From NCBI GenBank assembly GCA_019637115.1, contig JAHBWH010000003.1, positions 7,701 through 71,700 on the forward strand: a DNA stretch of 64,000 nt, written 5' to 3'. The notes under the pieces were generated by a model that was not told the DNA's origin, ran no database searches, and was given only the letters and a program-made list of their open reading frames with translations. Below are positions 25,552 to 54,575 of this stretch, piece by piece. This stretch comes from Myxococcales bacterium (GTDB taxonomy: Bacteria > Myxococcota_A > Polyangia > Polyangiales > Houyiibacteriaceae). How positions within the stretch are numbered: position 1 is the first letter of the stretch; the number at the start of each line of letters is the position of its first letter. A program made the position numbers and the translations under genes.

Positions 25552-25584
25552 TTCGCTCGCTCGTCCCGGGCGGCAGGCCTGGGA

Positions 25585-26739: not shown

Positions 26740-28276
<1,537 letters not shown>

Positions 28277-28280
<4 letters not shown>

Positions 28281-28741
28281 GCGATCGCCAGACCAGCGAC
28301 GAGGGCGCCAGGAAGAACACGCCGAGCGACTACCGGGTGATCGAGGAGCCGATCTTCTGGCGCCGAAGCCGCAGCGTGGAGCTCACCCCGACGCCGCCAC
28401 CTGACAAGCCCGAGCCCGTGCGACGCCCCGCCAAGGTCGCCCGGCAGCTCGCCCTCGCGCACCACCTGCAGGCCGCCATCGAGCGCGGGCTCGTGGCCGA
28501 CCAGGCCGCCCTGGCGCGCAAACTGGGGCTCACGCGCGCCCGCGTCACGCAGCTTTTCGACCTGCTCATGCTGGGCGCCGACCTCCAAGAGCAGGTGCTG
28601 GCCCTCGAAGCCGTCGACGGCGCCGAGCCGATGGCCGAGCGAACGCTGCGGGAGGTGGCCCACGCGGGTACGTGGGCCGAGCAGCGGGCAGCGTTGGAGA
28701 AGCTGATGGCCGCGCGCGTTGACGAGACGAAGCGCTTCTGA
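28277..28741 (+). CDS. HTH DNA-binding protein
   Basis: GTG start overlapping the recombinase stop (GTGA). LARKLGLTRARVTQLFDLLMLGADLQEQVL. Confidence 0.5.
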
Positions 28742-31022: not shown

Positions 31023-31027
31023 GGACC

Positions 31028-34573: not shown

Positions 34574-34587
34574 GGGGCGCCCGAGAG

Positions 34588-38523: not shown

Positions 38524-41081
38524 TGCACCCGCTTCACGACTATGTGGCCAAGCAGCTCGCCGACAAGCTCAAGGACCGTCGTGTCGTCGTCTGGTACGAC
38601 GAGCGCGGCGAGTTCCGGCCCTTCGTCGACGAGGTGCGCGGCGGGCCGCGCGCAGCGGCCGAGCCGGTGGCGGTGGGCGTCGCCGGCATCAAGGCGAGCC
38701 TCGCGGAGTACGCGGGTTCGTTGTTCGAGCTGCGCGCCGTCGTCGAGCCGCTGGTGAGCGGCGACAAGCCCGACGTGTTGGTCCTCTACATCCCCGGCCT
38801 CGCCCACGACGCGAAGGCCTCGGTGCTGATGGAGTTGGAGAAGGCCGGTCGCACCTGGAAGCCCGAGCTGAAGCAGCTCGCCAAGAACGTCCTGCTCCAG
38901 AAGTACACGCTCGGCGTGGTCGACGAGATGTTGCCCTTCGATCGCAAGGTCTCCTACGCGGACCTCGCGCGCGCGGCGGCGGGCAACTCGGGCGCGGAGC
39001 CGCCGTCGATCTTGAAGAGCATCTTCCACGATGCGAGCGGCAACGATGGGCTGCTCACGGCATGGCTCGTGAGCGACGCGCGCGACGCCGAGATCGTCAG
39101 CAAGGAGGCCACGCGCGAGCTGACCAAGCTCGTCAAGGCACGCCTGGGCTTGGACCTCGTGGCCGACTCACCCCTCGCGAAGCTGCGCGCCATCGTGCTG
39201 CGCTACGTGCTCGCAGGCGAGTTCCGCCTCGACCTCTCGTGTGACCCGCCCGCCTCGCTCGACAGCGTCGCCAAGCCGCCCACGAAGGACGAGGAGTCGG
39301 CCGTGCGCGAGCTCGCCCGACGCCTGCGCACCGGCCACGCTGACACCTACGCGGCGCTCGCCGATCGCGTCGAGGAGGAGCTGGGGCTCAAGAACGCCAA
39401 GCTGTCCCCCGGCGCGCTCGGCTCCATTGACACGTTCCGGTTCGAGGAACGCGCGCTGCTCCGTCACGCCGGTGATCTCGTCGCGAACTGCAAGTTCGAG
39501 AGCGCTCTCTCGCTCGTGTCCGAGCGAGAACAGAGCTTCTGGCTTGACCGTGACGTCGCTCGGAAGGCCCAGTGGGAGGCCACTCGGCGCATCGCCGAGC
39601 TCGGCCATCTGGCGGTTCAAGTGAAGGCAGCAGTGGGCAAGACCTCGGGAGATGCAGCGACGTGGCTCGACGCCTACGTCACGCAGTCGGGCTCCGGCTG
39701 GTTCCGCCTCGACCAGGCCCAGCGCCGCATGGAGGCATGGGTCGCGAACCTCGACGATGAGCCCGAGGAGCGCCCGCTCGCCGTCGTGCGCCGCGCCTAC
39801 GAGGACGCCGTCCACGCGATGGCCGAGGCCTTCACCAAGGCGCTCGGCAAGGCCGGGTGGACGGTGCCCGGTGCTCTGCACCAGACGCGGATCTGGAGCG
39901 AGGTCGTCAGCGACAAGCCCAAGCCCGTCGCCTACTTCCTCGTCGACGCGATGCGCTTCGAGATGGGCGTCGAGCTGGCCGAGCGCCTGCCGAAGACCTC
40001 AGAGGTCGCCGTGCGCGCCGCCGTCGGGGCGCTGCCGAGCATCACGCCCGTCGGCATGGCGGCGCTGATGCCCGGTGCCTCGGCGAGCTTCTCGGTCGTC
40101 GAGGAGAAGGACAAGCTCGGCGCCCGCATCGACGACGCCTTCTTGCCCGATCTCCCGGCCCGCAAGAAGCACGCTGCGGCGCGCGTGCCGAAGCTCGTCG
40201 ACCTCGCGCTCGACGAGCTGCTCTCGCTGCAGCCCTCGAAGCTCGCGAAGAAGGTCGAGGGCGCGCAGGTCGTCCTCGTTCGTTCCCAGGAGATCGACCA
40301 CGCGGGCGAGAACGGCTTCACGTACCAGGCGCGCCAGGTGATGGACACCGTCATCGACAACCTGGCGCGCGCGCTCGGCAAGCTCGCCAGGGCGGGCATC
40401 GAGCACGCGGTGGTGAGCGCCGACCACGGCCACCTGTTCTTCGCCACCGACCGCGACGAGTCGATGCGTACCGATGCCCCGGGCGGCGACACCGTCGAGC
40501 TGCACCGGCGCTGCTGGCTCGGGCGCGGCGGGGCGACGTCGGCAGGGTGCGTGCGCGTCGCGGCCTCGCAGCTCGGCTACGCCTCGGACCTCGAGCTGGT
40601 GTTCCCGGCCGCCACGGGCGTCTTCAAGGCGGGCGGCGATCTCGCTTTCCACCACGGCGGGCCATCGCTGCAGGAGCTGGTCATCCCGGTGCTGACCGTG
40701 CGCACGAAGACGCGCGACTCGGCGCGCCCCTCGGCGGGGCCCATCGAGGCGAGCGGGCTGCCCGAGGCGGTGACCAATCGCATCTTCAGCGTCACGCTCA
40801 TCTACGGCGCGAAACAGATGCTGCTCGGCGCGACGGGCATCCAGGTGCGGCCGCTCTTGATGGCGGCCGGGAAGCAGGTCGGCGCGGTGGGCATGGCGGT
40901 GGACGCACAGTTCGATCGGGCCACCGGCACCGTGAAGCTCGAGCCGAACAAGCCCGTGACCATCGCCTTCCTGTTGAGCGACGAGAGCGCCGCCTCGTTG
41001 CGCGTCGTGGTGCAGGACCCGACGACCGACGCGGAGCTGTACCGATCGCCGACCGACATCCCGGTTCGACTTGGAGTGTAA
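38523..41081 (+). CDS. pglZ: PglZ alkaline-phosphatase-superfamily protein
   Basis: 852 aa. YFLVDAMRFEMG and SADHGH motifs. The start overlaps the pglX stop. Confidence 0.9.
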   Translation: MHPLHDYVAKQLADKLKDRRVVVWYDERGEFRPFVDEVRGGPRAAAEPVAVGVAGIKASLAEYAGSLFELRAVVEPLVSGDKPDVLVLYIPGLAHDAKASVLMELEKAGRTWKPELKQLAKNVLLQKYTLGVVDEMLPFDRKVSYADLARAAAGNSGAEPPSILKSIFHDASGNDGLLTAWLVSDARDAEIVSKEATRELTKLVKARLGLDLVADSPLAKLRAIVLRYVLAGEFRLDLSCDPPASLDSVAKPPTKDEESAVRELARRLRTGHADTYAALADRVEEELGLKNAKLSPGALGSIDTFRFEERALLRHAGDLVANCKFESALSLVSEREQSFWLDRDVARKAQWEATRRIAELGHLAVQVKAAVGKTSGDAATWLDAYVTQSGSGWFRLDQAQRRMEAWVANLDDEPEERPLAVVRRAYEDAVHAMAEAFTKALGKAGWTVPGALHQTRIWSEVVSDKPKPVAYFLVDAMRFEMGVELAERLPKTSEVAVRAAVGALPSITPVGMAALMPGASASFSVVEEKDKLGARIDDAFLPDLPARKKHAAARVPKLVDLALDELLSLQPSKLAKKVEGAQVVLVRSQEIDHAGENGFTYQARQVMDTVIDNLARALGKLARAGIEHAVVSADHGHLFFATDRDESMRTDAPGGDTVELHRRCWLGRGGATSAGCVRVAASQLGYASDLELVFPAATGVFKAGGDLAFHHGGPSLQELVIPVLTVRTKTRDSARPSAGPIEASGLPEAVTNRIFSVTLIYGAKQMLLGATGIQVRPLLMAAGKQVGAVGMAVDAQFDRATGTVKLEPNKPVTIAFLLSDESAASLRVVVQDPTTDAELYRSPTDIPVRLGV

Positions 41082-41084
41082 GCC

Positions 41085-43124
41085 ATGAGCAACGGAGCAA
41101 CTCCTCAGAGAGACACCCTCGACGACAAGGTCAACCGCCTGTTCGCAGGCAAGGTGGTGCGCAAGGACCTCGTCCGAAAGGTGAAGGTCGGCGCCAACGT
41201 GCCGGTCTTCGTCCTTGAGTTCCTGCTCGGGAAGTACTGCGCGTCTTCCGACGAGGTGGCGATCCAGATGGGGCTCCAGGTCGTCAACGACACCCTCGCC
41301 AACAACTACATCCGCTCCGACGAGTCGATGAAGGCGCAGGCGATGGTAAAGGATCGCGGTCGCCACACCTTCATCGACAAGGTGAAGGTCCGCCTCGTCG
41401 ACTCGGACTACTGGGCCGAGGTCACGAACTTCGGCCACAAGAACGTCCACGTGCCGGAGCACTACGTGCGCGACTTCGAGCGCCTGGTGATGGGCGGCGT
41501 CTGGTCGCAGGTCGACATGCGCTTCGAGTACGACGAGGAGTCGAAGGGCAAGAACCCGTTCTGGATCGACAAGCTCACGCCGATCCAGATCGCCACCTTC
41601 GACCTCGAGGAGTACCGCCGCGTCCGCAGCGAGTTCACGCTCGACGAATGGCTCGATCTCATCATGCGCAGCATGGGCTACGAGCCCGGCGAGATGAGCC
41701 GCCGCCTGAAGCTGCTCTTCCTCGTGCGCCTCATCCCGCTCGCCGAGCGCAACTACAACCTCGTCGAGCTGGGCCCGCGCGGCACGGGTAAGAGCTACGT
41801 CGTGCAGGAGGTCTCACCGTACTCGGCGCTGCTCACCGGCGGCACCACGGTGGCCAACCTCTTCGGCCACATGAACGGCCGCCAGAAGGGAATGGTGCAG
41901 ATCTGGGACGTCGTCGGCTTCGACGAGGTCGCCGACCTGCAGAAGATGCCGAAGGAGGTCATCACGACGATGAAGACCTACTGCGAGTCCGGCACCTTCC
42001 AGCGCGGGCAGGAGGCGGTCTCGGGTGACGCGAGCATCGCGATGTTCGGCAACACCAACCAGCCCGTCGACGTGATGGTCCAGACCGGCCACCTCTTCGC
42101 GCCGATGCCCGACATCATCCGCGACGACATGGCCTTCATCGACCGCATGCACTTCTACCTCCCGGGCTGGGAGATCCCGAAGATGCGGAACGAGATGTTC
42201 ACGAGCCACTACGGCTTCGTCGTCGACTACCTCGCCGAGGCGCTCCGCGAGATGCGGAAGCACAACTTCACCGAGGTCATCGATCGCCACTTCTCGCTCG
42301 GCGCCCACCTCAACGCCCGCGACCGCAAGGCGGTGCGCAAGACCGTCTCGGGCCTGATGAAGATCCTCTTCCCGCACGGTGAGATCACGCGCGACGAGCT
42401 GGGCGAGATCCTCGAGCTGGCCGTCGAAGGCCGCCGCCGGGTGAAGGAGCAGCTCAAGAAGATGGGCTCCTTCGAATACTACCACACGTCCTTCAGCTAC
42501 TCGGATAACGAGACCGGCGAGGAGAAGTTCGTCGGCGTGCCCGAGCAGGGTGGCCGCGACCTCATCTCCACCGACCCCTTGGCCCCTGGCACCGTCTACA
42601 GCGCGGGCGTCACGTCCGATGGCACCGTCGGTCTCTACCGCGTCGAGGTCTCCGTCTCGAGCGGCACGGGCAAGTTGAAGCTCGCGGGCGGCGTGGCCGG
42701 AGCCATGAAGGAGTCCGTGCAGCGCGCCTTCAGCTTCCTCCAGACAAGGAAGTCCGAGCTAGGCATCGCGCGCGACCTCGACGTCTCCGACCTCCACGTC
42801 GAGGTCATCGACCTCCTCGCCAATCGCGTCGAGGCCGAGCTCGGCGTCGCCTTCTTTGTCGCCGCCTACTCGGCGATCCGCAAGGCGCCCGTCAGCCCCG
42901 CGCTCCTCATCCTCGGCGACCTCAGCGTGCAGGGGAACATCAAGCCCCTGCGCTCGCTCACCGAGCCCCTGCAGGTCGCCAAGGACAACGGCGCCAAGCG
43001 CGCCCTCATCCCCATCGAGAACAAGCGGAACTTCCTCGACGTCAGCGCCGACATCATGGAGCACGTCGACCCGATCTTCTTCGGCGACGCGAAGACCGCC
43101 GCGATGAAGGTGCTGGGGGGCTGA
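41085..43124 (+). CDS. brxL: BrxL Lon-like protease/ATPase
   Basis: 679 aa. NLVELGPRGTGKSY Walker A and a C-terminal Lon-protease-like domain (LILGDLSVQGNI...). Confidence 0.9.
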   Translation: MSNGATPQRDTLDDKVNRLFAGKVVRKDLVRKVKVGANVPVFVLEFLLGKYCASSDEVAIQMGLQVVNDTLANNYIRSDESMKAQAMVKDRGRHTFIDKVKVRLVDSDYWAEVTNFGHKNVHVPEHYVRDFERLVMGGVWSQVDMRFEYDEESKGKNPFWIDKLTPIQIATFDLEEYRRVRSEFTLDEWLDLIMRSMGYEPGEMSRRLKLLFLVRLIPLAERNYNLVELGPRGTGKSYVVQEVSPYSALLTGGTTVANLFGHMNGRQKGMVQIWDVVGFDEVADLQKMPKEVITTMKTYCESGTFQRGQEAVSGDASIAMFGNTNQPVDVMVQTGHLFAPMPDIIRDDMAFIDRMHFYLPGWEIPKMRNEMFTSHYGFVVDYLAEALREMRKHNFTEVIDRHFSLGAHLNARDRKAVRKTVSGLMKILFPHGEITRDELGEILELAVEGRRRVKEQLKKMGSFEYYHTSFSYSDNETGEEKFVGVPEQGGRDLISTDPLAPGTVYSAGVTSDGTVGLYRVEVSVSSGTGKLKLAGGVAGAMKESVQRAFSFLQTRKSELGIARDLDVSDLHVEVIDLLANRVEAELGVAFFVAAYSAIRKAPVSPALLILGDLSVQGNIKPLRSLTEPLQVAKDNGAKRALIPIENKRNFLDVSADIMEHVDPIFFGDAKTAAMKVLGG

Positions 43125-43366
43125 CGATGACGACCGAGTTCCCGCCGCTCGTGCAGTCCAAGCGCCCCCCGGCGTCGAGGGAGGCGGCCGCGCAAGTCGA
43201 CGCCGGCCTAGCCGGTGAGCGCGCGGGCCTGGGAGACTCCAGACCTTCGGTGACGCGGAACGCGGTAGGAGTCGTGACCAGTGGTTAGCGCTAAGCCCAG
43301 TACCGATCGTTGCGTGTCCCTGCGTCAGGGAACGCGGCCCCTTTGCTTGAGCGCCGGAGCCATCCC

Positions 43367-44458
43367 ATGAGCAACGACGCCCTGAACGCGGTCTGCCCCT
43401 ACTACACGATGTACCCGCTCGACTTCCCGCTGCGCGTCTTGGAGAAGTTCGGCAAGCGAGGCGACTGGGTCATCGATCCCTTCTGCGGGCGCGGCACCAC
43501 GAACTTCGCGGCGCGGCTGCGGAGGATGCCTTCGATCGGCGTGGACAGCAGCCGAGTGGCAACCGCTCTCGCCCAGGCAAAGCTCGCCACGGCCACGCCC
43601 AACGGAGTCGTCGAGAGCGCCAAGCGCATCCTGAAGGATGCGAAGCCTCCGACCTCGATGCCCACGGGCGAGTTCTGGAAGCTCGCCTACCATGAGCACA
43701 CGCTCGTCCAGCTCTGCCAGCTCCGCGAGGCACTACTCGCACAATGCTCCTCGGACACGCGCATCTTGCTGCGCGCGATCATGCTCGGCGCACTCCACGG
43801 CCCAAAGCCCAAGGGCACGCCGTCGTACTTCTCGAACCAGTCGCCGAGAACGTTCGCGCCCAAGCCGAAGTACGCGGTGAAGTTCTGGACCGAGCGCAAC
43901 ATGCACCCGGTCGAGGTCGACGTGTTGTCGATCATCAAGGCGAGGGCGAAGCGCTACCTCACGGAGCCGCCGCCGAGCATCGCTGGCAAGGTGCTGCTCG
44001 GCGACAGCCGCGTGGCCGATACCTTTGCCGACCTGCCCAAGAAGGCGCGTCTTGTGGTCACGTCGCCTCCGTATTTCGGCATGCGGACCTACTTGCCAGA
44101 CCAGTGGCTTCGGCTCTGGTTCCTCGGCGGCCCGGACTACGTCGAGTACCGGCAGCCCGAAGGGCAGCTCGAGCACTCCGGCGCCGACCACTTCGCCGCC
44201 GAGATGGGGCGCGTCTGGACGAACGTCGCCAACCACACGACCGACGATGCGCGGCTCATCATCCGTTACGGAGGCATCCACGACCGGGATGCCGTGCCGC
44301 TGGACGTGCTGAAGAAGTCGCTGGTGGAGTCGGGCTGGAAGATGAAGACAGCTCAGGCCGTGCCTGCTCCTGTCGCCGCCCGCCGGCAGGTGGTCCAGTT
44401 CGGCGCCGAGCCGAAGGAAGCGAAGACCGAATATGACGTGTACTGCCACCGTGCCTGA
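43367..44458 (+). CDS. N6/N4 DNA methyltransferase (motif I before motif IV)
   Basis: WVIDPFCGRGTTNF (AdoMet binding) followed about 190 aa later by LVVTSPPYFGM. The start is the internal ATG at 43367. Confidence 0.75.
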   Translation: MSNDALNAVCPYYTMYPLDFPLRVLEKFGKRGDWVIDPFCGRGTTNFAARLRRMPSIGVDSSRVATALAQAKLATATPNGVVESAKRILKDAKPPTSMPTGEFWKLAYHEHTLVQLCQLREALLAQCSSDTRILLRAIMLGALHGPKPKGTPSYFSNQSPRTFAPKPKYAVKFWTERNMHPVEVDVLSIIKARAKRYLTEPPPSIAGKVLLGDSRVADTFADLPKKARLVVTSPPYFGMRTYLPDQWLRLWFLGGPDYVEYRQPEGQLEHSGADHFAAEMGRVWTNVANHTTDDARLIIRYGGIHDRDAVPLDVLKKSLVESGWKMKTAQAVPAPVAARRQVVQFGAEPKEAKTEYDVYCHRA

Positions 44459-44470
44459 AGGAGAAAGCCA

Positions 44471-45778
44471 GTGACGAAGGGCAACCAGAAGAAGCCGGCG
44501 GCAGGCGCGAAGACGCAGCAGGCAGCGGCGAGCCATCTCCTGAAGGGGGAGAAGGTATCGTTCGATGACAAGGATATCGAGAAGAAGGTCAGTGATGAGG
44601 ACCTGAACAGCCGTTACGCGAAGGGTGAGATGCGCATTGTCACGGAGCAGGCGCGCTATCCGCTCGCGGGTATCCTCGCGATGTTGAAGGAGGAGGTTGA
44701 GGGGGAAGGCGGCAAGATGGAGCCGCGCTACAAACTCGACCCCGAATACCAGCGGCGGCACCGGTGGAGCGTGGAGCGGAAGTCGCGGCTCATCGAGTCG
44801 TTCTTGATGAACGTGCCTGTGCCGCCCGTGTTTCTGTTCGAGCGCGAACTCGCGCGCTTTGAGGTGATGGACGGCCGCCAGCGGTTGACTGCGCTCAGCG
44901 ATTTTTACGCAAACAAGTTCGCGCTGGCGGGCCTCGAGCAGTGGGCAGACTTGAACGGTCGCACATACTCGGAGCTGCCCTCGAAGATCCAGGACGGCAT
45001 CAACCGCCGCTACATCTCGTCGATCATCCTTCTCAAGGAGACAGGTGGCGACGAGGCGAAAGCGGCGGAGCTGAAGAAGATGATCTTCGAGCGCCTCAAC
45101 TCCGGCGGCGTAAAACTGGGCAGCCAAGAGACCCGCAACGCAGTGCATGGCGGACCGCTCAATTCACTGTGTCTCGCACTATCCGAGAACGAGAACTTCC
45201 GTCGCATGTGGGGCATCCCGTTGGACCCATCGCCAGAGGAGAGGGACGCCGACGAAGAGGAGGCTGACGAAGCCGTCGACGAGTCGACGAAAGCCGGCGA
45301 GCGCATGTTCAAGAACATGGAGGACGTCGAGCTCGTCCTTCGCTTCTTTGCGTATCGGCAGATCACCCCCAAGTTCAACCTGAACAAGATCTCCGAGTTC
45401 CTCGACCGGTTCATATCGGAGGGCAACAACTTCCCGGCGACGGTCCTGGCCGAGTACAAGACGATGTTCGAGGCGACGGTGGCGTTCCTTTGGGAGGCGC
45501 TCGGGACCGAGGCTTTCACCGTGCTCGATCCCTCGAAGAAGCGGCCAACCAAGATCGTTTACGACCCGCTGATGTTCGTGGCTAACAGCGCCGCCGTCGT
45601 CCCGCATCACGCGAAGCTCGTCGCCAAGAAGGCGGTCCTGCGTGGCGAACTTGAGGCCATGTACAAGGCGAACCACGAGCTGTTCTCCGGGCGTCGCACG
45701 AACTTCAAGGACACCCAGGACCGCAACCGTTGCGTGAGCGAGGCCTTCGCCGCCGCGATCACGAAGACCAAGAAGTGA
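44471..45778 (+). CDS. DUF262 (ParB-like NTPase, GmrSD N-domain) protein without a DUF1524/HNH domain
   Basis: DPEYQRRHRWSVERKSRLIESF...FEVMDGRQRLTAL (DGQQR-type motif). GTG start. Confidence 0.75.
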   Translation: MTKGNQKKPAAGAKTQQAAASHLLKGEKVSFDDKDIEKKVSDEDLNSRYAKGEMRIVTEQARYPLAGILAMLKEEVEGEGGKMEPRYKLDPEYQRRHRWSVERKSRLIESFLMNVPVPPVFLFERELARFEVMDGRQRLTALSDFYANKFALAGLEQWADLNGRTYSELPSKIQDGINRRYISSIILLKETGGDEAKAAELKKMIFERLNSGGVKLGSQETRNAVHGGPLNSLCLALSENENFRRMWGIPLDPSPEERDADEEEADEAVDESTKAGERMFKNMEDVELVLRFFAYRQITPKFNLNKISEFLDRFISEGNNFPATVLAEYKTMFEATVAFLWEALGTEAFTVLDPSKKRPTKIVYDPLMFVANSAAVVPHHAKLVAKKAVLRGELEAMYKANHELFSGRRTNFKDTQDRNRCVSEAFAAAITKTKK

Positions 45779-45796: not shown

Positions 45797-46897
45797 GTGC
45801 GTTCCACGCTGGATGAACTCATCACGGAGCTGGGCGAGCTGAAGGCGCTCATAGCGTCCATCGAGCCGGTCAACGCCGCACTCCTGGGCCACAAGGACAG
45901 CGTGGTCCAGCAGTACGTCTCGATCCGACGGCGCTTCGACTACGCTGCGTTTGCCGTCGCGCTGTACGCGTCGTTCGAGAAGTTCGTCGAGAACCTCGTC
46001 ACCGCGTACGCGCTACTCGAGGCGCGTCGAGTCGAGTACGCGAAGCTCCCGGAGAAACTGACGGAGAAGCACCTGGCCGGGACGGCCGAGCTGCTGTGGC
46101 GTCGCCGACTCGGAGAGGGACGGTACGTCGGTATGAACGAGCTGGGCGTGGTCAAGAACCTCTTCGAGTGCCTCAGCGGCACCAGGCCCTATGCGCTGAA
46201 CGAGGCCGTGGTGAGCGCCCACGACGCGAACCTGCGCGCGGGCGAGGTCGATGCTGTCTTCGCTGCCGTTGGCATCGAGAAGATCTGCGACCGTGCATGT
46301 CGCGCCGACGCAATCACCTCCTGGTATTGCACCGTGCAGGGACTCGACACGCCGCCCCAGGACGGCGTGAAGCGAACGGTGCTTGAGGAGCGCCTAAAGG
46401 GCATCGTCGAGCGCAGAAACCAGGTCGCCCACCGAGGCGGCAACCCGATGAACCTCCTCGGAGGCGCCGACATGAGCGAGGCGGTGGCTTTCATCGAGAG
46501 CTTGGGGGTCTCGATCTTCGGGCTGGTTGTTGGTCGCTATCTGGTGGCCCACCATGCAACGTCTTCCGGCCGCATCGAGCTGCCGTTGCGTGACGGGGAT
46601 GGCCCCTTCAAGGGCCGCACGGTCGTCGTCGTCGACAAGCCCGCTCAGCGGCTCTTCGTTGGGCAGCCGGTGTTCGTCGTCGTGGAGTCCACCGGCGCTC
46701 GGTGGGGGCGCATCCAGAGCCTACGAGTCGATGATGCCGACGTGCAGGAGCTGGCGGCGAACGCGAACGCGCCCACGGGCGTTGGCGTCGGCCTGGACTT
46801 CAGGTTCCCCAAGAGCGCCGACGCGAAGCTGGTTGCCCTCGCGGCCGATGACGACGTGGTCTGGAGCCCGCTGGCGGTGGCGGCGCCGGCCGCGTGA
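45797..46897 (+). CDS. HEPN-domain protein (RiboL-PSP / MAE_28990-like) with a C-terminal beta-rich domain
   Basis: Rx4H motif in IVERRNQVAHRGGN. Helical N-terminal 240 aa. 13- and 18-nt gaps to neighbouring genes. Confidence 0.6.
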   Translation: MRSTLDELITELGELKALIASIEPVNAALLGHKDSVVQQYVSIRRRFDYAAFAVALYASFEKFVENLVTAYALLEARRVEYAKLPEKLTEKHLAGTAELLWRRRLGEGRYVGMNELGVVKNLFECLSGTRPYALNEAVVSAHDANLRAGEVDAVFAAVGIEKICDRACRADAITSWYCTVQGLDTPPQDGVKRTVLEERLKGIVERRNQVAHRGGNPMNLLGGADMSEAVAFIESLGVSIFGLVVGRYLVAHHATSSGRIELPLRDGDGPFKGRTVVVVDKPAQRLFVGQPVFVVVESTGARWGRIQSLRVDDADVQELAANANAPTGVGVGLDFRFPKSADAKLVALAADDDVVWSPLAVAAPAA

Positions 46898-46902
46898 CCG
46901 CG

Positions 46903-49032
46903 TCAGCGCCGGATGATGAAGAGCGTGTTCTTGGCGCCGCGTCGCTCGGTGGCCCACGCCTTGTCCTGCTGCCCATTGACGATCTTCGAGACGGCGTTCG
47001 CGACGAGGCGGTTGATGCGGTTCTTGTCCTGGCGAAGGCTCTCGGGGAGCATCGCCTCGATCTTCCGCATCACGACGAACCACGGGATGCCGTCGCCTTG
47101 GAGGATCTTCTGGCGCACCTCGGCGTCCTGCTCGACGGCGGCCACGGCGCTCTCCGTGTCGGCGCGGAGGGTGTCTTGCGGGGTGACCGAGATGTCCGGG
47201 CCGTCTTCGTCGCCCGAAGCGGCGGGCACCGCCACGGCGCTGGCCGACGCCTTCGCCACGGCGGCCGCCGTCGGCGGGGTAGCAGAGGTCAGCGGGGCGC
47301 TGTCGCGCAACTTCGTCGCGTAGTTCTCTACCGGCCCGAGCGCGTAGCCCGGGTCGCGCGTCGTGTGCATCTTCTCGAACGAGAGGATGCGGAGGGGCAC
47401 CGGGTAGGCGTTGCCTTTCACGCTGCTCCAGAACACGCCCTGGCCGACGAGCGGCTCGTTGAGAAGGCTGCTCAGGAGGTCATCGCTGAAGTGCGCGTTC
47501 GCCTTCCGCACGTTCTGAAGATCGCTCGCCGAGAGCAGGTGGAAGATGAACCAGTTGTCGCCTTGGCTCAGGATCTCGACGGGGATGCTGCCGGGCTGCT
47601 GCGTGATGAGCACAGCGCCAAGATCGTACTTACGGCCTTCCTTCACCCACTCGATGTAGGGCGTCGCGGCCGAGGCCTTGTCGTTCAGGACGCTCTGCGC
47701 CTCTTCGACCACGGCGATCGTCGGGATGCTCTCCGAGTCAGCGCGCGTGAACTGCTCTTGGTTCCAATCGAAGATGCGGCGCAGGATGAGGCCGGAGAGG
47801 ATCATCGAGGCGCCGCCACGGAGCTGCGACACGTCGACGACGCAGAGCTTCCCGTCACGCAGGGCGCGCAGCAACAGATCGAGGAGGCGGCTCGCAGGAT
47901 CGTGGAGCTGCGAGACAATCTTGGTCATGTTCCCGCGCGCCGCGAGCGCCTCGGGGTCCTGGCTGTCAGCGAGGCCGAGCAGTTCCTTAATGTCGTCGAG
48001 GTCGGCGTTGTTGCGGTCTGCCCAGATAAGGTCGACGAGTTGCTCCCACCGGCCCGAGTCGAGCCCGCGCAACTTGCTGACGTTCTGCTGGTCTTGTCGC
48101 TCGGGCGGCAGTGCGATCGAGATGACGTCGGAGGGACGGAGACGTCGGATGTCGAGCTTGATCGTGCCTGCCACGAACGACTGGTAGAACGGGCTCGGCG
48201 CCGCCCGCGAGGTGAAGACCACGACTTGGTCTTCGAGCGCGGGCACGTCGCACAGCCCGGGACGCCCCTTGTCGTCAGGCCAGAAGTACTCGCCGTCGGG
48301 GTCGAAGATCATCGTCCCGACGGGGACCTTCTTGCCGCCGCGCTTCTCGACGGTGGGCGTCTGCGAGTAGAGCGCACTGAAGAGCAGTTTGTTCAGGTTC
48401 GACTTGCCGAAGCCGGCGCGCGCGAAGACGAACGACCTGCGCGACACCAGGTTCGCGATGTCGAACTTCACCGTGATGGTCGGGTCACGGAGCTGCATCC
48501 AGTTCTCGGCGTTCAGCCGGCCGTCGCCCTTGGCGAAGATGTACTCGCCGAGCGCAAAGAACCCGAGCTCGGCGCCGAGCTGGTTGTGGCCTGCGATCTC
48601 GCGGAGCACGGCACCGGAGGGAAACGCGACGGGGCTGCCAACGTGCGGCAGGCGTCGGTGCGACGGGACGAACACCAGGGAACCGTTGTTCTTGCGCAGG
48701 ACGCCGAGCACGCGGATGTTCACGCGGTACTTCAGGTAGTCCTCGCGGAGCCCTTCGGGGACGGCGCGCCGTTCGCGCACAGCGCGGATGTTGAAGTCCT
48801 CGCCAGAGGGGCCGCTCAGTCGCCCCTCGGACGAGAGCGACGTGATGCGCCCGAGAACGGCCTCGTCTGGCGTTTCGAGCTGCACGAGCAAGAACTGCCC
48901 ATGCATCGGCGTGTTGTGGAACTCGGTGCGGTAGGGCAAGGCGAGGTCGGCGTGGAACTCCATGCCCCCCTCACGGAAGCCACGGAAGACGCCGACGACC
49001 TGATCGTCTGGGAAGAGATTGAGGTCCGCCAT
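46903..49032 (-). CDS. herA: HerA/FtsK-like ATPase with a ~170-aa C-terminal extension
   Basis: N-terminal HAS-barrel-like segment (..GQFLLVQLETPDEAVLGRITSL..). Walker A FARAGFGKSN, Walker B IAVVEEAQSVL, and DLGAVLITQQPGSI. Confidence 0.75.
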   Translation of the reverse strand: MADLNLFPDDQVVGVFRGFREGGMEFHADLALPYRTEFHNTPMHGQFLLVQLETPDEAVLGRITSLSSEGRLSGPSGEDFNIRAVRERRAVPEGLREDYLKYRVNIRVLGVLRKNNGSLVFVPSHRRLPHVGSPVAFPSGAVLREIAGHNQLGAELGFFALGEYIFAKGDGRLNAENWMQLRDPTITVKFDIANLVSRRSFVFARAGFGKSNLNKLLFSALYSQTPTVEKRGGKKVPVGTMIFDPDGEYFWPDDKGRPGLCDVPALEDQVVVFTSRAAPSPFYQSFVAGTIKLDIRRLRPSDVISIALPPERQDQQNVSKLRGLDSGRWEQLVDLIWADRNNADLDDIKELLGLADSQDPEALAARGNMTKIVSQLHDPASRLLDLLLRALRDGKLCVVDVSQLRGGASMILSGLILRRIFDWNQEQFTRADSESIPTIAVVEEAQSVLNDKASAATPYIEWVKEGRKYDLGAVLITQQPGSIPVEILSQGDNWFIFHLLSASDLQNVRKANAHFSDDLLSSLLNEPLVGQGVFWSSVKGNAYPVPLRILSFEKMHTTRDPGYALGPVENYATKLRDSAPLTSATPPTAAAVAKASASAVAVPAASGDEDGPDISVTPQDTLRADTESAVAAVEQDAEVRQKILQGDGIPWFVVMRKIEAMLPESLRQDKNRINRLVANAVSKIVNGQQDKAWATERRGAKNTLFIIRR

Positions 49033-49035
49033 GTT

Positions 49036-50163
49036 CTATCCGTACCGCTTTCCTGCAGGGTCCGCGTCGATGAGGGCCAGCTCGTCGAGAACTGCTGCGC
49101 TCTCGCCAAGGGACTCGCGGATCGCGTTCACGATTCCCTGCTGGAGAATGTCCATGTCGAAGTCGACGAGGGCGGCGTTCTCGTGCGCCCGCTGGAGGCA
49201 CCGCGGGTAGAACGGCACCGGGAAGCCTTCGATCGCATCAGCGAGCAAGCTGCCGAAGATGAGCTGGGCGTCGCTGAGCTGCGTCTCGAGCAGGTCGACG
49301 GGCCAGATCGGGTCGCGCGGTCGACCACCGAACTTCACGAAGAACATCTTGCCGGCGACGAACTTGTTGACCTCGCCGGTTTCGACCTCGCCGCCGCGCG
49401 CGTACTCGGACCAGACGTACGCGTTCTGCTCCAGCTCGCGCGAGACGTCGGCGTAGCAGGGGTAGTCGGTGCGCATGGTGCCCTCAAGCATCATGGCAAG
49501 TCGGTAGCGCTGGAGCACCTTGGAGTGCTTCGCGACCCCGACCACGTAGATGTTCCGGCGCTTGGCCTTCTGCGCGCGCAGGGCCTCCTCAATGCCCTTG
49601 CGAAGGTCGGCGAAGAGCGTCGTCGAGAAGACCTTGCTGCGCAGCAGGCCATCCCAGACGATCACTGTGTCCGTGCCGTAGTCCTTTTCGCGCACGAGCG
49701 AGAAGAGCACCGCCCACTCGGTCAGCTCCCGGTAGACCTGCACCCAGCTCGGCGAGGGCGTCGCCGGCGGCTTCTTGATCATCGGCGACAGCTCCCAGAG
49801 GAACGTGACGCCGAGGAACTTCATCATCTTGCCGAGCGGGGTCTTGGCGCTCCCGTCTTCGAGGTGGCGCTTCGAGAGCGCGACGAGGTCGGAGGTTGGT
49901 GTGACGACCTCGAGGCAGTACTCGTTGTTGCTCGAGTCCACGACGCGAACGAGCTGCGCCATGAAGGGATCGAATTCGACTCGGTTGTTGCCTCCGTCGG
50001 TGCCGACGAGGGACACGGCGGTGGTCTGCCTCGACATGATCCGCCGCGCGTCACCGAGCCCCGAGCGCACCTCCGCGCGCAGGTCCTCCAGGAGCTTCCG
50101 GTCCTCGACCATCCGCTCCCGAAGTTCCTTGCGCAGTTGCGCCATGCTCTCGGGGGCGATCAC
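49036..50163 (-). CDS. nurA: NurA-like nuclease
   Basis: SLVGTDGGNN, TVIVWDGLLRS and IYVVGVAKHSK follow the NurA motif I-III pattern. 3-nt gap to herA. Confidence 0.6.
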   Translation of the reverse strand: MIAPESMAQLRKELRERMVEDRKLLEDLRAEVRSGLGDARRIMSRQTTAVSLVGTDGGNNRVEFDPFMAQLVRVVDSSNNEYCLEVVTPTSDLVALSKRHLEDGSAKTPLGKMMKFLGVTFLWELSPMIKKPPATPSPSWVQVYRELTEWAVLFSLVREKDYGTDTVIVWDGLLRSKVFSTTLFADLRKGIEEALRAQKAKRRNIYVVGVAKHSKVLQRYRLAMMLEGTMRTDYPCYADVSRELEQNAYVWSEYARGGEVETGEVNKFVAGKMFFVKFGGRPRDPIWPVDLLETQLSDAQLIFGSLLADAIEGFPVPFYPRCLQRAHENAALVDFDMDILQQGIVNAIRESLGESAAVLDELALIDADPAGKRYG

Positions 50164-50270
50164 GATCTGGCAGTGTACCAGGGCGGTCTGACGGCGTTAA
50201 CCAACTCCTTGATTTCAGCGGCGGTCTCGGGGCGGAGCCTGCGCACCGCATCGCGCGGGATGGCGCGCCG

Positions 50271-51302
50271 GTGCTGGCCATGCCCTGGCGCTTGGCGGAT
50301 GGGGGCGGCGTGAAACCGGCCGAGTCATCGGTGATCGCGACCCTGCGCTGGTACTTCGCGCGTCGCCATCGGGGAGTGCCGTTCTACTGCGACGTGGCCC
50401 AGGTGGGCGCGTTCGCCGTCGCGCCCGACGAACTCGCGGAGGGCACCGACGCGGCCATCTTCCGGCTCTTCGTCACGCTCTCGATGTACCAAGCGCTACG
50501 CGACGTCACGATCATGCGCCAGCAGCAGTCGCTTCCGCGCAGGTCGATGCGCGTCGTCGCCGACGCCGCGACGGTGAAGCGGTTGATCTCCCAGCACCCC
50601 TGCCCGACGCTGGGCTCGGTCGAGGCCTTCGAGCACGGCTGCGACGTCGCGAAGGACGGCGAGGACGTGGACTGCGGCACCTGCCCCGACGTCGCGTGCC
50701 ACGTGAAGGACGCGACCCGCGTCTTCAAGCGCATGGGCGACATGGGCAAGCTGCCGACCTCGGCGTGGCTCCGGCTGTGGCGAAACGGTGGGGTGCAGAC
50801 GTTGCTCAAAGAGGTCTGCCGCGAGGAGCCGTCGCCCACGAGCCGCGCCACGCTCCTCGTGGAGCGGTTCGCCGCTGTGCATCGCGTCGGGCGCAAGCTC
50901 GCGACGATGTTCGTCAGCGCGCTCTCCACACCAGCGCTCGCTCCGGGGCTCACGCCCTGGTTCCCGGAAGTTGACGGCAACGAACTGGTGGTCGTCGACA
51001 CGAACGTCGCGCGCGCCGTCGATGCTCTCCGCGCCCCCGGCGCGGCCAAGACCTACGATGCGCGCGAACGGTGGGTGCGCGAGCAAGCCGCCAAGCTCGA
51101 CCTTCGCGTGTTCGGACCGAACCTGCCCGCGTACTCGCCGAGGCTCGTGCAGGAGGCACTCTACGTCTTCTGCTCGAAGTCGAACCGCGCCGCACGAGGG
51201 GACGACTGCTCCAGCCGGAGCTCGCCCTGCGCGGCGTGTGCGCCCGCGTTGTGCCCCTTCACGAGGCCGATCGAGAAACAGACGAGGGAGGCCAGCGCAT
51301 GA
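50271..51302 (+). CDS. EndoIII-like HhH-GPD DNA glycosylase/AP-lyase with an Fe-S cluster and an extra Cys-rich insert
   Basis: HhH VHRVGRKLATMF (Lys equivalent to Nth K120). VVVDTNVARAV (Asp equivalent to D138). C-terminal CSSRSSPCAACAPALC (C-X6-C-X2-C-X4-C). Insert CPTLG..HGCD..DCGTCPDVAC. Confidence 0.6.
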   Translation: MLAMPWRLADGGGVKPAESSVIATLRWYFARRHRGVPFYCDVAQVGAFAVAPDELAEGTDAAIFRLFVTLSMYQALRDVTIMRQQQSLPRRSMRVVADAATVKRLISQHPCPTLGSVEAFEHGCDVAKDGEDVDCGTCPDVACHVKDATRVFKRMGDMGKLPTSAWLRLWRNGGVQTLLKEVCREEPSPTSRATLLVERFAAVHRVGRKLATMFVSALSTPALAPGLTPWFPEVDGNELVVVDTNVARAVDALRAPGAAKTYDARERWVREQAAKLDLRVFGPNLPAYSPRLVQEALYVFCSKSNRAARGDDCSSRSSPCAACAPALCPFTRPIEKQTREASA

Positions 51303-51363
51303 GGAGCTCCGCGCCCGAGCAGCGCCAAGGGCCGCCCCTTGTCCCGAGCGCGCCCTCGTCGCC

Positions 51364-51751
51364 CCCTGGGCCAACGTGGCGCCCCAGTGGCGCTCGTCGG
51401 CGGGAGCGCCCGAAGGAGTGGACCATCAAGTCTCGCTTGCCCGTAGCCGCCGAGGACCCGGGCAGGGAGTCGCCGAGGAAGTCGCCGGGGATGTCGCCGA
51501 GGAAGTCACCGGGATGTCACCGGGGATGTCGCCGGGGATGTCGCCGTCCCTGCCGACGCCCCGGGCGCTCACGGCCCCTGAAGTCGCCCCCGAAGTCGAG
51601 AGGACGCCCAGCTTCGCCACGGGCGCGCCCGCTCCGCTCGCCGCGCCCCTCGCTCGGTCCAGCGCCTTCGGCGCGCCCTGGGCCAACGTGGGCGCCCTGG
51701 TGGCGCTCGTCGCTACGGCTTCCCGAGCCCGCCCCCATCAAGCCTGGCTTG
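51364..51751. repeat. two ~76-bp direct repeats (51364-51439, 51676-51751) flanking GC-rich short tandem repeats
   Basis: ccctgggccaacgtgg..ggcgctcgtcg..catcaag.ct.gcttg occurs twice, 312 bp apart. Between the copies is (G)GGGATGTC(G/A)CC / GAGGAAGTCGCC reiteration. No convincing ORF. Confidence 0.5.
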
Positions 51752-51766
51752 AACGATTCGGCCGGG

Positions 51767-52513
51767 TCAGCAGGAAGCTCGACCGCCGAGCGCGGCACGC
51801 TCTGGTCGCGGCACGCGACGCCCGTTCTGGGTCGGCCTCAGTTCGAAGACGAAGGCGTTGCTGGGCGCGTCGATGATGCCCGGGAGGCGACGCGCGTCCT
51901 CGGGCAACATCGTGCGCTTGCGAAGCTCGAAGCCGACTGCCTCGACGAACCACTGCATCGCGCTGACGGCGTACATGCGGCCGACGCCGACCTCGTACGC
52001 GTGGCGCACGATGTACTCGACGAGCGCGCGGCCGTGCTTCTGCCGCCGACAGGTCGCGCGAACCGCGAGCGCCCGCAGCACCGCGGCGTCGCCGTACTCG
52101 TCGAGCACCGCGACGCCGATGACGACGCGGCCGTGCTCGAGTACAGCGCGCGTCCGCCTTCCGCCCGCGGGCTCGAGCCAGAGCTCCGACGTGGGGAACC
52201 AGGTCATCTCCAGCAGCATGTTCGCGACCAGCTCATCCCGGGCCTCGAGCTCGCGGAACACTCGGCGCGGCGGCCCCTTCGGCTTCTCGAGCAGCCCCGA
52301 GGTGAGAGGCGGCTCCGGCTTCGGCGGCTCGGGCGGCGGCCAGGCTTCCCCACGACGCTCGGCCCGGTGCTTCGCCCGCCACATGCCGAGCAGGGTCTCG
52401 GCGAGCACGCCGGCCACCTCCTCGATGCGGCGCTGCACGTCGGCGCGTCGCTCCTCGCGCTCGGTGTTCGCGGCGGCGTCTTCGGGCTGCGGGGCCTGGT
52501 CCATGCAGACCAC
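51767..52513 (-). CDS. GNAT acetyltransferase with a ~110-aa N-terminal extension
   Basis: Motif A CRRQKHGRALVEYIV and the beta-strand pattern of GNAT. The N-terminus EERRADVQRRIEEVAGVLAETLLGMWRAKHRA is related to the 25692 ORF. The likely ATG is at 52504. Confidence 0.65.
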   Translation of the reverse strand: MVCMDQAPQPEDAAANTEREERRADVQRRIEEVAGVLAETLLGMWRAKHRAERRGEAWPPPEPPKPEPPLTSGLLEKPKGPPRRVFRELEARDELVANMLLEMTWFPTSELWLEPAGGRRTRAVLEHGRVVIGVAVLDEYGDAAVLRALAVRATCRRQKHGRALVEYIVRHAYEVGVGRMYAVSAMQWFVEAVGFELRKRTMLPEDARRLPGIIDAPSNAFVFELRPTQNGRRVPRPERAALGGRASC

Positions 52514-52613
52514 ACAGGCTCGCTTCCCCGCTACAGTCCAGCGGGAGCCGGGACGCCTCGCTTTCGCTCAACGTGTCCCGAGGGCACCCGCTCCCGAGGC
52601 GACGGACCCACGA

Positions 52614-52720
52614 TGGGACAGTGCGAAGCGGCGAATCTGTCCCAGCGCTCTCGGCGCAAGTTCTCGGAGTCGCAGCGCGAGCGCCTGTGTGGGTCAGTGC
52701 GAAGGTACGAAGCTGTCCCA
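52614..52720. promoter_or_regulatory. two 31-bp inverted-repeat units (52614-52644, 52690-52720)
   Basis: TGGGACAGTGCGAAGCGGCGAATCTGTCCCA and TGGGTCAGTGCGAAGGTACGAAGCTGTCCCA. 8-bp arms, with a conserved GTGCGAAG at the start of the spacer. Confidence 0.5.
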
Positions 52721-52769
52721 ACTGCGTTTACCGAGAGCGTTCGCAGGCTGCGCCGCACACGGAGCTCAT

Positions 52770-52806
52770 GAAGCCCCAGACGAGTCCGTCTGGGGCTTCC
52801 GTTTTA
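52770..52806 (+). terminator. intrinsic-terminator-like hairpin
   Basis: gaagccccagacg-agtc-cgtctggggcttc is a perfect 13-bp stem followed by cGTTTTA. No T-run follows it on the other strand. Confidence 0.55.
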
Positions 52807-53327: not shown

Positions 53328-54575
53328 TCAGGCCGAACTCGCGGTCCCACTCGGCGCTCCACACGAGCCGCGCACCATCGCGTTGCGGGCGCCGACGTCG
53401 TCGCGCTGCCACGCGGTCCAGGCGGGCGCGAGGGCTTCGAGGAATCCGCGCGAGCGGTCGTCGCGGAACCAGGAGATGTGCGCCTCACGAAGCACCGTGA
53501 GCACCCGCGCCTCGACGTGGCGCGCGGCGACCTGCACCGGCGGCGAACAGGCCGGACGCGCCGCGTCGCCCCGGCAGCGGTAGTAGCGCGGGACCTCGTC
53601 GGCGTTCTCCATCGTGACTGCCGCCGACGCAGTCGTCGTCATCACCCGGCCGCAGCCGGTGCAGCGCAGCAGCCCACGCAGCATCCACGGGTCCTGGTCC
53701 CACGGTGGCGCCTTCGATCGAGGCGACGGTTCGCGCGTGCGCCGAGCGTCGAGCGCCGAGAAGGCGCGGCGGGCGAGGTCCTCGTCGACGATCGCCTCGT
53801 GCACGCCCTCGACCGTGCCCTCTCCGTGAGCGCGACGGCCGAGGTAGATCGGGTTGCGGACCACCTGCAGCACCGAGCGCCCCGTCCACATCGCGCCGCC
53901 CTTGCCGCCGTGGACCTTGGTGCGATGGCCAGCGTCGTTCGCCCAGGCGGCGATGGACGCGCCCGACTCGCCCGCGGCGCAGCGCTCGAAGAACGCCCGC
54001 ACCAAAGCGGCCTCGTCCTCGTCGACAACGAGCTGCCGCGTGTTCGGGTCCGCCTCGTAGCCGAGCGGTACGCGCCCAGCGGCACGACGACCGTGAGCGC
54101 GAGCCCGCCCTTTCGCCTCGCGCAGCCGCTCGCTGATGATGTCGCGCTCGAACTCGGCCAGGCTGGCGACCACGTTGTTCACGAGCTCGGCGAGCGGCCC
54201 ACGTGCCCCGCCGGCGCCCTGCAAGATCACCAGTTCGACGCTCGCCTGCTTCAGCCAGTCGTTGAGCCGCACCCAGTCGGACATCTTGCGCGCGAGCCGG
54301 TCGATGCTCGTGACCACCACGACGTCGACGCGCCCCTGTACGCACCACGAGAGCAGGCGCCGCAGCGCGGGGCGCTCGAGGTTGCCGCCGCTCACACCGA
54401 GGTCGTCGAAGTGTTCGTCGAGCGTGACCCAGCCCTCGTACTGCATGGCCCGCACGTAGTCCTCGCAGCGCTCGCGCTGCACCTCGCACGAGGTCAGGTC
54501 CTGCTCCCCGCGCGCGACCGACTGGCGGGTGTAGATGGCGCAATGGAGAACGGGTTGACCACGCGAGGTGAACAT
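53328..54575 (-). CDS. large serine recombinase, C-terminus apparently frameshifted (would extend to 53239)
   Basis: AIYTRQS..SCEVQ..DDLGVSG..SIDRLARK..LAEFERDIISERL. Zn ribbon CTGCG..YYRC. See the finding on the frameshift. Confidence 0.85.
   Translation of the reverse strand: MFTSRGQPVLHCAIYTRQSVARGEQDLTSCEVQRERCEDYVRAMQYEGWVTLDEHFDDLGVSGGNLERPALRRLLSWCVQGRVDVVVVTSIDRLARKMSDWVRLNDWLKQASVELVILQGAGGARGPLAELVNNVVASLAEFERDIISERLREAKGRARAHGRRAAGRVPLGYEADPNTRQLVVDEDEAALVRAFFERCAAGESGASIAAWANDAGHRTKVHGGKGGAMWTGRSVLQVVRNPIYLGRRAHGEGTVEGVHEAIVDEDLARRAFSALDARRTREPSPRSKAPPWDQDPWMLRGLLRCTGCGRVMTTTASAAVTMENADEVPRYYRCRGDAARPACSPPVQVAARHVEARVLTVLREAHISWFRDDRSRGFLEALAPAWTAWQRDDVGARNAMVRGSCGAPSGTASSA

Follow-up and report, generated by a model that had tools for sequence, protein, structure and literature searches.

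A predicted glycosylase–NurA–HerA system in a myxobacterial defence island is the seam of two independent modules

In the 64,000-nt stretch of Myxococcales DNA analysed here (the whole stretch is called 'the window'), the 4.4-kb span 46903–51302 carries three genes. Two of them lie on the minus strand and encode a HerA/TdpA-like translocase of 709 aa (46903–49032) and a NurA/TdpB-like nuclease of 375 aa (49036–50163); the third lies on the plus strand (50271–51302) and encodes a 343-aa Cys-rich, endonuclease III (EndoIII)-like protein with a predicted iron–sulphur (Fe-S) cluster, for which we use the working name X343. The original prediction read the three genes as one system, in which an EndoIII-like glycosylase nicks DNA with foreign bases and the nick becomes the loading point from which NurA/HerA degrade that DNA, in the manner of type IV restriction. 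We conclude, with high confidence, that the span is the seam of two independent modules. The first consists of the NurA-like and HerA-like genes and a gene for a PF01555-type DNA methyltransferase (MTase) at 43310–44458 (plus strand; Pfam N6_N4_Mtase, 4e-10); the MTase gene, situated outside the coordinates originally considered, is the conserved third gene of NurA/HerA. The second is X343, a recurrent, system-agnostic gene at the 3′ edge of myxobacterial defence islands that is independent of NurA/HerA. For the whole package, i.e. the two modules along with the roles proposed below for each of them, our confidence is lower but still good.

The survey of related loci (designated by L-numbers) was seeded from both sides, with the NurA-like protein (84 loci) and with X343 (51 loci); counts are given over testable loci. 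An adjacent herA gene was found in 58 of 59 NurA-seeded loci. A homologue of the window MTase stands beside herA in 41 of 43 (directly adjacent in 39), with convergent orientation in 24 and co-directional orientation in 17 of the 41 MTase-positive loci. X343 was detected in a single one of 56 NurA-seeded loci (L056, where NurA is 97% identical to the window protein), and NurA/HerA in two of 42 X343-seeded loci (L045 and L052, both 98–99% identical to the window). Every co-occurrence of X343 with NurA/HerA is confined to the window's own lineage of 97–100% identity. Linkage of the glycosylase gene to nurA/herA in other genomes, named beforehand as the check that could refute a three-gene system, was not seen outside this lineage in the loci surveyed.

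The nick-and-degrade proposal has points in its favour: the genes are adjacent, divergent and 107 nt apart in the window, L045, L052 and L056, and a bifunctional glycosylase-lyase could in principle give a resection machine a place to enter. Against it, in addition to the counts of 1/56 and 2/42 from one lineage, each part is found where the other is not. The same five-gene cassette that the window carries (MTase, DUF262, HEPN, HerA and NurA) lies in Archangium sp. Cb G35 (L004) between a trehalase gene and lptD, with neither BREX nor X343 present; NurA-HerA-MTase occurs alone in L005 and L007, as well as in a Phycisphaerales genome and many metagenome contigs. Conversely, L020 has the MTase-DUF262-HEPN genes (DUF262-HEPN pair at 7584–10004) overlapping the start of X343 and no NurA/HerA, and in L003 and L011 X343 directly abuts brxL. 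NurA/HerA are, moreover, strongly tied to another partner, the MTase. Because the glycosylase gene is unlinked to nurA/herA in other lineages, the three-gene coupling is refuted on comparative grounds, and we regard the nick-and-degrade model as very improbable.

The origin of the adjacency can be read from the junction between brxL and X343. Over its 3′ end, brxL is 91–97% identical in nucleotide sequence among the window, L003, L011, L023 and L045, and similarity stops exactly at the brxL stop codon, which in the window (43124) forms the left border of the site of insertion. X343 begins 3 nt past brxL in L003 (Archangium violaceum) and L011 (Hyalangium); the window and L045 have the 7.2-kb five-gene cassette between brxL and X343; L023 has at this place another cassette of 6.3 kb, whose last gene encodes a GAP1-N1 protein. 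The L023 and L045 loci both come from metagenome-assembled genome (MAG) CAYMUE01 (Polyangiaceae) and are either two loci or strain/population variants in a co-assembly. Since the junction is empty in L003 and L011 and is occupied by different cassettes in the window and L045 as opposed to L023, it is an insertion hotspot, with nurA facing X343 by accident of cassette insertion. Sequence comparison of the junctions did not find a conserved recombination site or other DNA site.

The predicted identity of the HerA-like protein was upheld. The motifs GFGKSN, VVEEAQ and ITQQP are present in the translation, and the central DUF87 domain with Walker A/B motifs is detected well above threshold (PF01935, E = 2.8e-18, 67 bits against a cutoff of 23), while the HAS-barrel match at the N-terminus is weak (PF09378, E = 0.043, 14.4 bits against a cutoff of 25.2). 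The top match among PDB sequences is TdpA (8wet_A, E = 2.9e-21); archaeal HerA (4d2i, 8.5e-13) and the HerA partners of Sir2 and DUF4297 systems rank below it. The protein had been credited with an unexplained C-terminal extension of ~170 aa; the extension exists, and its length is ~150 aa past the core alignable to HerA/TdpA (residues ~560–709; 46903–47355, minus strand). It is family-wide (members have 680–720 aa), has no match in Pfam and is made up of a linker rich in Ala, Ser and Pro and variable in sequence (19% identity), followed by a domain of ~85 aa (27%), compared with 67–74% in the core. As the tail evolves far faster than the motor, the way specificity or sensor elements would, its C-terminal domain may be such an element, a candidate reader of a mark or target.

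For the NurA-like protein, too, the initial assignment held, on structural grounds. The motifs TDGG, VWDGLL and VGVAKHSK are present in the translation, though the Pfam NurA score is below the gathering threshold (PF09376, E = 0.17, 11.8 bits against 21). The AlphaFold2 (AF2) model, with a predicted local distance difference test score (pLDDT) of 76 and a predicted template modelling score (pTM) of 0.76, has the NurA (RNase H-like) fold: Foldseek matched it to TdpB (8wet_G/8wfd_G, E ~1e-11, TM 0.62–0.68) and to Sulfolobus solfataricus NurA (2ygk, E = 2.2e-6), with weaker matches to Argonaute PIWI and EndoV behind them. In a search of PDB sequences with the family profile TdpB was the sole match (E = 0.0084). 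Residues D56, E81, D171 and H327 are invariant in the family alignment. The family is widespread (3,328 protein matches; the closest homologue, from Sorangium, is 98% identical), and no homologue was found in the plasmid collection. Four IMG/VR contigs classed as viral (L136–L139) carry NurA-like homologues of 36–68% identity; prophages or other mobile elements may also carry the NurA/HerA/MTase triad.

The nearest characterized relative of both the HerA-like and the NurA-like protein is the restriction half of TdpABC, a phosphorothioate-based restriction–modification (R-M) system in which, as outlined in PMC12914056, tdpC makes the modification. TdpA and TdpB (8wet/8wfd) are the best PDB matches of the window proteins, HerA by sequence and the NurA-like protein by fold as well as by its sole profile match, and both loci have adjacent HerA-like and NurA-like genes with a linked modification gene (An et al., Nat Chem Biol 2025, as cited in PMC12914056). 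The linked gene differs, however: in 41 of 43 loci it codes for a PF01555 S-adenosylmethionine-dependent methyltransferase and not for the phosphorothioation enzyme TdpC. No linked TdpC gene is present in the window cassette, whose other genes are the DUF262 and HEPN genes. The window HerA has in addition the C-terminal linker and domain of ~150 aa, and the window NurA-like protein is only 16–18% identical to TdpB. Archaeal HerA-NurA (4d2i, 2ygk) shares with the window pair the DUF87 core, the NurA fold and adjacent, probably co-translated genes; the window pair differs in having no Mre11/Rad50 neighbours, in being coupled to an MTase, in its position in defence islands and in scoring below the Pfam NurA threshold.

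A further parallel, in gene content, is the tdtA operon of the Thermus thermophilus element ICEth1, which encodes the NurA-like TTC1878 (377 aa), the HerA-like TdtA (TTC1879, 568 aa) and a PF01555 methylase, TTC1880 (410 aa) (PMC5365140). Compared by published description, it has the same three-gene architecture with similar protein sizes, and is located on an integrative mobile element. The differences are that the ICEth1 operon also includes the type IIG enzyme Tth111II, that it has been assigned to transjugation and that TdtA lacks the C-terminal extension (568 against 709 aa in the window). The NurA/HerA/MTase triad is a methylation-linked variant of this known type of TdpABC/ICEth1 operon. 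Another candidate parallel, DraI of Deinococcus, was dismissed: R.DraR1 is a GIY-YIG enzyme and irrelevant here.

In the MTase, motif I (DPFCGRG, aa 56) precedes motif IV (SPPY, aa 252) by ~190 aa, the Pfam PF01555 match covers just aa 30–85, and the order of motifs is permuted with respect to the usual PF01555 layout. An SPPY motif IV is typical of N4-cytosine methyltransferases, and judging by this motif the mark is probably N4-methylcytosine.

We propose that the first module is a TdpAB-like, modification-dependent restriction cassette. The MTase would mark host DNA, likely with N4-methylcytosine; on the model of TdpAB and the archaeal HerA-NurA complex, hexameric HerA would thread double-stranded DNA into a NurA dimer and unmarked DNA would be degraded; the fast-evolving C-terminal domain of HerA would read the mark or target. 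An R-M-like function of this kind is the one towards which we lean, by analogy. Several observations count against it. In ICEth1 the same triad was shown to be necessary for DNA donation, not for defence (PMC5365140); our literature search found no report of a methyltransferase-coupled NurA/HerA defence system; PADLOC models gave no match to the NurA-like protein; and we infer the functions of both modules, this one and X343, from comparison and analogy.

The first of these observations leads to a distinct explanation, namely that the triad is a DNA-mobilization module that processes donor DNA and pumps it out by transjugation on behalf of a mobile island. Both NurA and TdtA are required for DNA donation by ICEth1, which has all three genes in one operon (PMC5365140), and protein lengths agree (375 aa for the window NurA-like protein and ~560 aa for HerA without its tail); large serine recombinases on both sides of the window island would also be in keeping with mobility. 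On the other hand, near-obligate coupling to an MTase (41/43) suits self/non-self marking better than DNA export, the closest solved relatives, TdpA and TdpB, belong to a restriction system, the cassette has BREX, DUF262, HEPN and type III-like systems for neighbours, and no NurA-like homologue was found in the plasmid collection. We therefore consider mobilization quite unlikely and prefer the restriction cassette.

The DUF262 and HEPN genes form a two-gene unit between the MTase and herA genes. The first encodes a ParB/DUF262 (GmrSD_N) NsnA-like protein of 435 aa (44471–45778, plus strand; Pfam GmrSD_N, 9e-25) and the second a RiboL-PSP HEPN protein (45797–46897, plus strand; Pfam HEPN_RiboL-PSP, 1.2e-14). 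Its occurrence with the cassette is restricted to the sub-lineage of the window (L004, L020, L045, L052 and L056). The 435-aa protein has a ParB-DUF262 domain and matches PADLOC NsnA (8.8e-55), a component of Menshen (NsnABC), one of the DUF262 systems, which combines NsnA with the ABC-ATPase NsnB and with NsnC (PMC12065111). In the window, the HEPN gene and the MTase gene take the place of NsnB and NsnC; with neither of these two among the neighbours, canonical Menshen was rejected for the DUF262 gene.

The second module, X343, was harder to classify. Its translation contains VGRKLA, VVDTN, the motif C313-x6-C320-x2-C323-x4-C328 and cysteines 111, 124, 135, 138 and 143. The true start of the protein is likely ATG 50280 or GTG 50310 (V14), since similarity to homologues sets in near 50346. 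The support for an EndoIII-like nature comes from comparison of family alignments, one for X343 with members down to 26% identity and one for EndoIII built from three verified sequences (2abk, 1orn and 9nzc; the locus DNA examined yielded no Nth/MutY homologues with which to enrich this profile). With hhalign the two families align colinearly over 96 columns (probability 83%, E = 8.9e-6); with a less divergent X343 alignment the probability was just 12%, and it rose to 83% upon addition of members of 26–50% identity. The score of 44.9 was not reached by any of 200 column-shuffled EndoIII alignments (13.2 ± 2.4, maximum 23.7), and reversed or unrelated profiles scored at most 17 in the same comparison.

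The alignment places the functional residues of the two families opposite each other: VGRKLATMFVS of X343 corresponds to VGRKTANVVLN of EndoIII (K209 to K120), VVDTNVARAV, after a 17-residue insert, to VDTHIFRV (D243 to D138), and C313/320/323/328 to C187/194/197/203. Two sets of four cysteines, C111/124/135/143 and C313/320/323/328, are invariant or nearly so in the X343 family; Q74, D78 and P290 are invariant, and 90% or more of the sequences retain K209 and D243. With relaxed hhalign settings the N-terminal helix FRLFVTLSMYQALRDV of X343 pairs with PFELLIAVLLSAQATDV of EndoIII at low confidence. LSMYQALRDV likewise matches LLSAQATDV at low confidence, and the additional Cys4 region appears, again with low confidence, as an insert of ~65 residues.

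Several results do not sit easily with this assignment. X343 has no significant match in Pfam, NCBIfam, PADLOC or PDB sequences; the Pfam helix-hairpin-helix (HhH) family HhH-GPD is below threshold (PF00730, E = 0.25, 12.1 bits against 26.2), and only 2 of 29 divergent members have weak matches to HhH-GPD/EndIII_4Fe-2S. The N-terminal half aligns to EndoIII at low confidence only, a few divergent members are without one cluster cysteine, and the AF2 model from a 28-sequence alignment (pLDDT 45.6) was uninformative in Foldseek and leaves the fold unconfirmed. A deep search of 1.84 billion representatives recovered the X343 family itself only (204 matches), with no bridge to EndoIII. On the alignment of the HhH Lys, the Asp and the four Fe-S cysteines, together with the shuffling result (0/200), we nevertheless accept X343 as a divergent EndoIII-like Fe-S protein with its catalytic Lys/Asp dyad intact, as had been predicted; the family is probably a catalytic one that Pfam lacks. 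With Nth/EndoIII (2abk) it shares a colinear C-terminal half that has the HhH Lys, the Asp and the C-x6-C-x2-C-x4/5-C cluster loop. It differs in being ~130 aa longer, with the 17-residue insert between HhH and Asp and the ~65-residue insert with four more invariant cysteines, and in being a multi-copy, island-borne gene, whereas Nth-type genes are single-copy core genes.

The X343 proteins form a previously undescribed EndoIII-like family that stands out by its genomic setting. With 642 clusters at 90% identity the family is a small one, nearly confined to Myxococcota apart from a few MAGs of Planctomycetota, Nitrospirota and Holophagales, and searches of the plasmid, phage and IMG/VR collections gave no match. 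One Archangium gephyra chromosome has two copies (L018 and L028). Upstream of X343 we found BrxL of BREX-1; Hma, a system of DUF1156 MTase, DUF499 ATPase and SNF2 helicase that is named BREX-related (BR) type 1 in PMC12839542; McrBC with an S8 peptidase; a cluster of MTaX1, SNF2 and SMC-like AAA_23 genes, which in Anaeromyxobacter sits on an integrative and conjugative element (ICE); GAP1-N1; and another PglZ system. Within one tight X343 clade (73–83% identity) the upstream system changes each time; the cargo varies and X343 is stable. An exclusive role as a BREX accessory was rejected, with X343 found equally behind at least six kinds of system.

In 31 of 46 loci X343 has the same orientation as its upstream neighbour, with a gap of at most 150 nt in 19. 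In L019 and L047 X343 is divergent from the 5′ end of BREX. The genes downstream are transposases, integrases, GNATs, methyltransferases and housekeeping genes. Neither a sigma-70 promoter nor an intrinsic terminator was found around X343, a result that is uninformative at 70% G+C. As an observation apart, the McrBC neighbourhood is a conserved four-gene unit of McrB-like AAA_5, McrC, a ~370-aa protein and a 939-aa subtilase (Peptidase_S8) immediately upstream of X343 in L008, L009 and L014 (~2400–9990); pairing of McrBC with a protease is unusual.

The single most likely role of X343, which we put forward tentatively and by analogy, is that of an auxiliary base-excision enzyme (glycosylase/apurinic-apyrimidinic lyase) that would damage invading DNA with non-canonical bases. 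Acting alone and not via NurA/HerA, it would supplement the system that happens to precede it with a further level of defence. The authors of the Brig1 study argued that modified phages escaping BREX or R-M meet an additional barrier in a glycosylase (PMC11078745), and this add-on logic fits X343 because the gene is appended to many different systems. The known anti-phage glycosylases Brig1 and Brig3 have folds like those of uracil-DNA glycosylase and alkyladenine glycosylase, respectively (PMC11078745, PMC13160076), and in END nucleases an EndoIII domain that has lost its catalytic residues serves as a sensor fused to a phospholipase D (PLD) nuclease (PMC12191111). Like X343, as proposed here, all three are defence-island genes, recognizing non-canonical phage bases, and the END domain is EndoIII/OGG-like. 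However, neither Brig1 nor Brig3 is an HhH enzyme, and X343 differs from END in being free-standing, in keeping the Lys and Asp and in having two Cys4 sites.

Some of the survey data weigh against this proposal. In 15 of 46 loci the upstream neighbour is on the other strand, so the operon-terminal position is a tendency rather than a rule; X343 is also found behind systems that have no MTase (McrBC and GAP1); and a function in mobility or regulation might instead account for the position at island edges. Two other roles thus have to be compared with the auxiliary anti-invader enzyme. X343 might be a self-protective repair enzyme that fixes base damage in host DNA or abasic and nicked intermediates left by the neighbouring systems, for which Vsr with Dcm and Mig with M.MthTI are precedents; the catalytic Lys, Asp and Fe-S cluster are those of the repair enzyme EndoIII, and many of the upstream systems have methyltransferases (PglX, DUF1156, PF01555 and MTaX1-associated). 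The methyltransferases near X343 are, though, mostly of N6-adenine types, and products of N6-adenine methylation are not prone to deamination. The MTase-less McrBC+S8 and GAP1 systems are likewise hard to square with repair, as is the small family, nearly restricted to Myxococcota (204 clusters among 1.84 billion), given that BREX and Hma elsewhere manage without X343. A broad 2026 survey of BREX and BREX-related neighbourhoods makes no mention of a glycosylase, HhH protein or NurA component (PMC12839542). We judge self-repair to be unlikely.

Less likely still is that X343 is no defence effector, being either a DNA-binding sensor or regulator (with a redox-sensitive Fe-S cluster and an HhH) or a cassette-exchange factor at island edges. 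It does mark a border, where defence genes on its upstream side give way to transposases, integrases and housekeeping genes on the downstream side, and one junction, brxL|X343, is filled by differing cassettes; immediately 3′ of the gene there are repeats and a mobile GNAT module; and END nucleases use the EndoIII domain purely as a sensor (PMC12191111). But 90% or more of the sequences, which range down to 26% identity, keep the Lys/Asp pair, in contrast to the iEndoIII of END; no recombinase-like domain is present in X343 and no conserved DNA site was found at the junctions; and X343 is tightly coupled in translation to upstream effector genes (gaps of 3–30 nt). The auxiliary base-excision role is accordingly retained as the preferred one. 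A bolder joint claim would be that X343 is the first catalytically active HhH/EndoIII-type anti-phage enzyme, free-standing, with a double metal site, system-agnostic and travelling at the 3′ end of BREX, Hma/DUF499, McrBC and other systems of Myxococcota, and that by excising hypermodified or otherwise non-canonical bases from invading DNA it bars phages from escaping through modification of their DNA, and that the NurA/HerA/PF01555 triad is a widespread methylation-keyed counterpart of TdpABC; we consider it doubtful that both parts are right.

On present evidence neither module is categorically new. The apparent new three-gene system is a chance juxtaposition produced by cassette insertion, and the example shows that adjacency in a defence island must be tested across lineages. 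The MTase partner suggests that not only phosphorothioation but also methylation can serve as the key for a motor-nuclease of the TdpAB type, and the link to the Thermus transjugation operon raises the possibility that one machine has been read as defence here and as DNA donation there. Should X343 be active on modified phage DNA, the HhH superfamily would join the folds of antiviral glycosylases, and a new enzyme for modified-base detection would be at hand. The brxL|X343 junction offers a natural site for studying cassette turnover in myxobacterial defence islands.

All of the open reading frames (ORFs) noted earlier in 46903–51302 were recovered on translation of the window, and the coordinates reproduce the 3-nt gap between the nurA-like and herA-like genes and the 107 nt between the nurA start and X343 on the opposite strand. 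A further ORF of 1139 aa (46894–50313, plus strand), antisense to herA/nurA, was discarded as a high-G+C artefact after failing the GC3/GC2 codon-position filter; the G+C content of the window is ~65–72%. The predicted setting, with BREX/HEPN on one side and a serine recombinase on the other, was also confirmed: a complete BREX type 1 operon (BrxA-BrxC-PglX-PglZ-BrxL, 29662–43124, plus strand; Pfam BrxA, BrxC wHTH/DUF6079, Eco57I/MmeI MTase, PglZ and BrxL_ATPase, the last at 1.5e-129) and the HEPN gene are located upstream, and a large serine recombinase downstream. The genes are defence-island cargo, which agrees with the accessory rather than housekeeping status ascribed to them. The order along the window is DUF2924 with a serine recombinase, BREX, MTase, DUF262, HEPN, herA/nurA (opposite strand), X343, GNAT and serine recombinase. 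The two large serine recombinases, at 25823–28280 (plus strand, with the preceding DUF2924 gene) and 53328–54575 (minus strand), bracket BREX, the cassette and X343, and the island between them may be a present or former integrative element.

An HTH_31 repressor-like gene (25198–25626) precedes the first serine recombinase region. A small ORF at 28223–28741 (plus strand), with weak helix-turn-helix (HTH)-like matches only, is found again in other loci at the opposite end of the defence cargo from X343 (L009, 16074–16346; L018, 3351–3746; L034, 3419–3628; L038, 11396–11713), and it adjoins DUF2924 and the serine recombinase in the window and in L009. This ORF and X343 may together bracket the cargo slot of an integrative element.

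Just 3′ of X343 there is a direct repeat of ~50 bp (51350–51399 and 51662–51712, 88–91% identity) that brackets a 12-nt tandem repeat at 51469–51546 (6.6 copies, consensus GTCGCCGAGGAT). The region 51466–52770 contains a GNAT module on the minus strand (GNAT ORF 51767–52513). The module with its flanks is conserved next to X343, in either orientation, in L012 (~11300–12640), L033 (~11500–12650) and L039 (~11350–12510), with 77–92% nucleotide identity (89–95% for the protein), i.e. better than X343 itself in these loci (58–77%), and a 44-bp copy of the direct repeat lies beside it in all three. From this pattern of conservation the GNAT module looks like a separately mobile unit.

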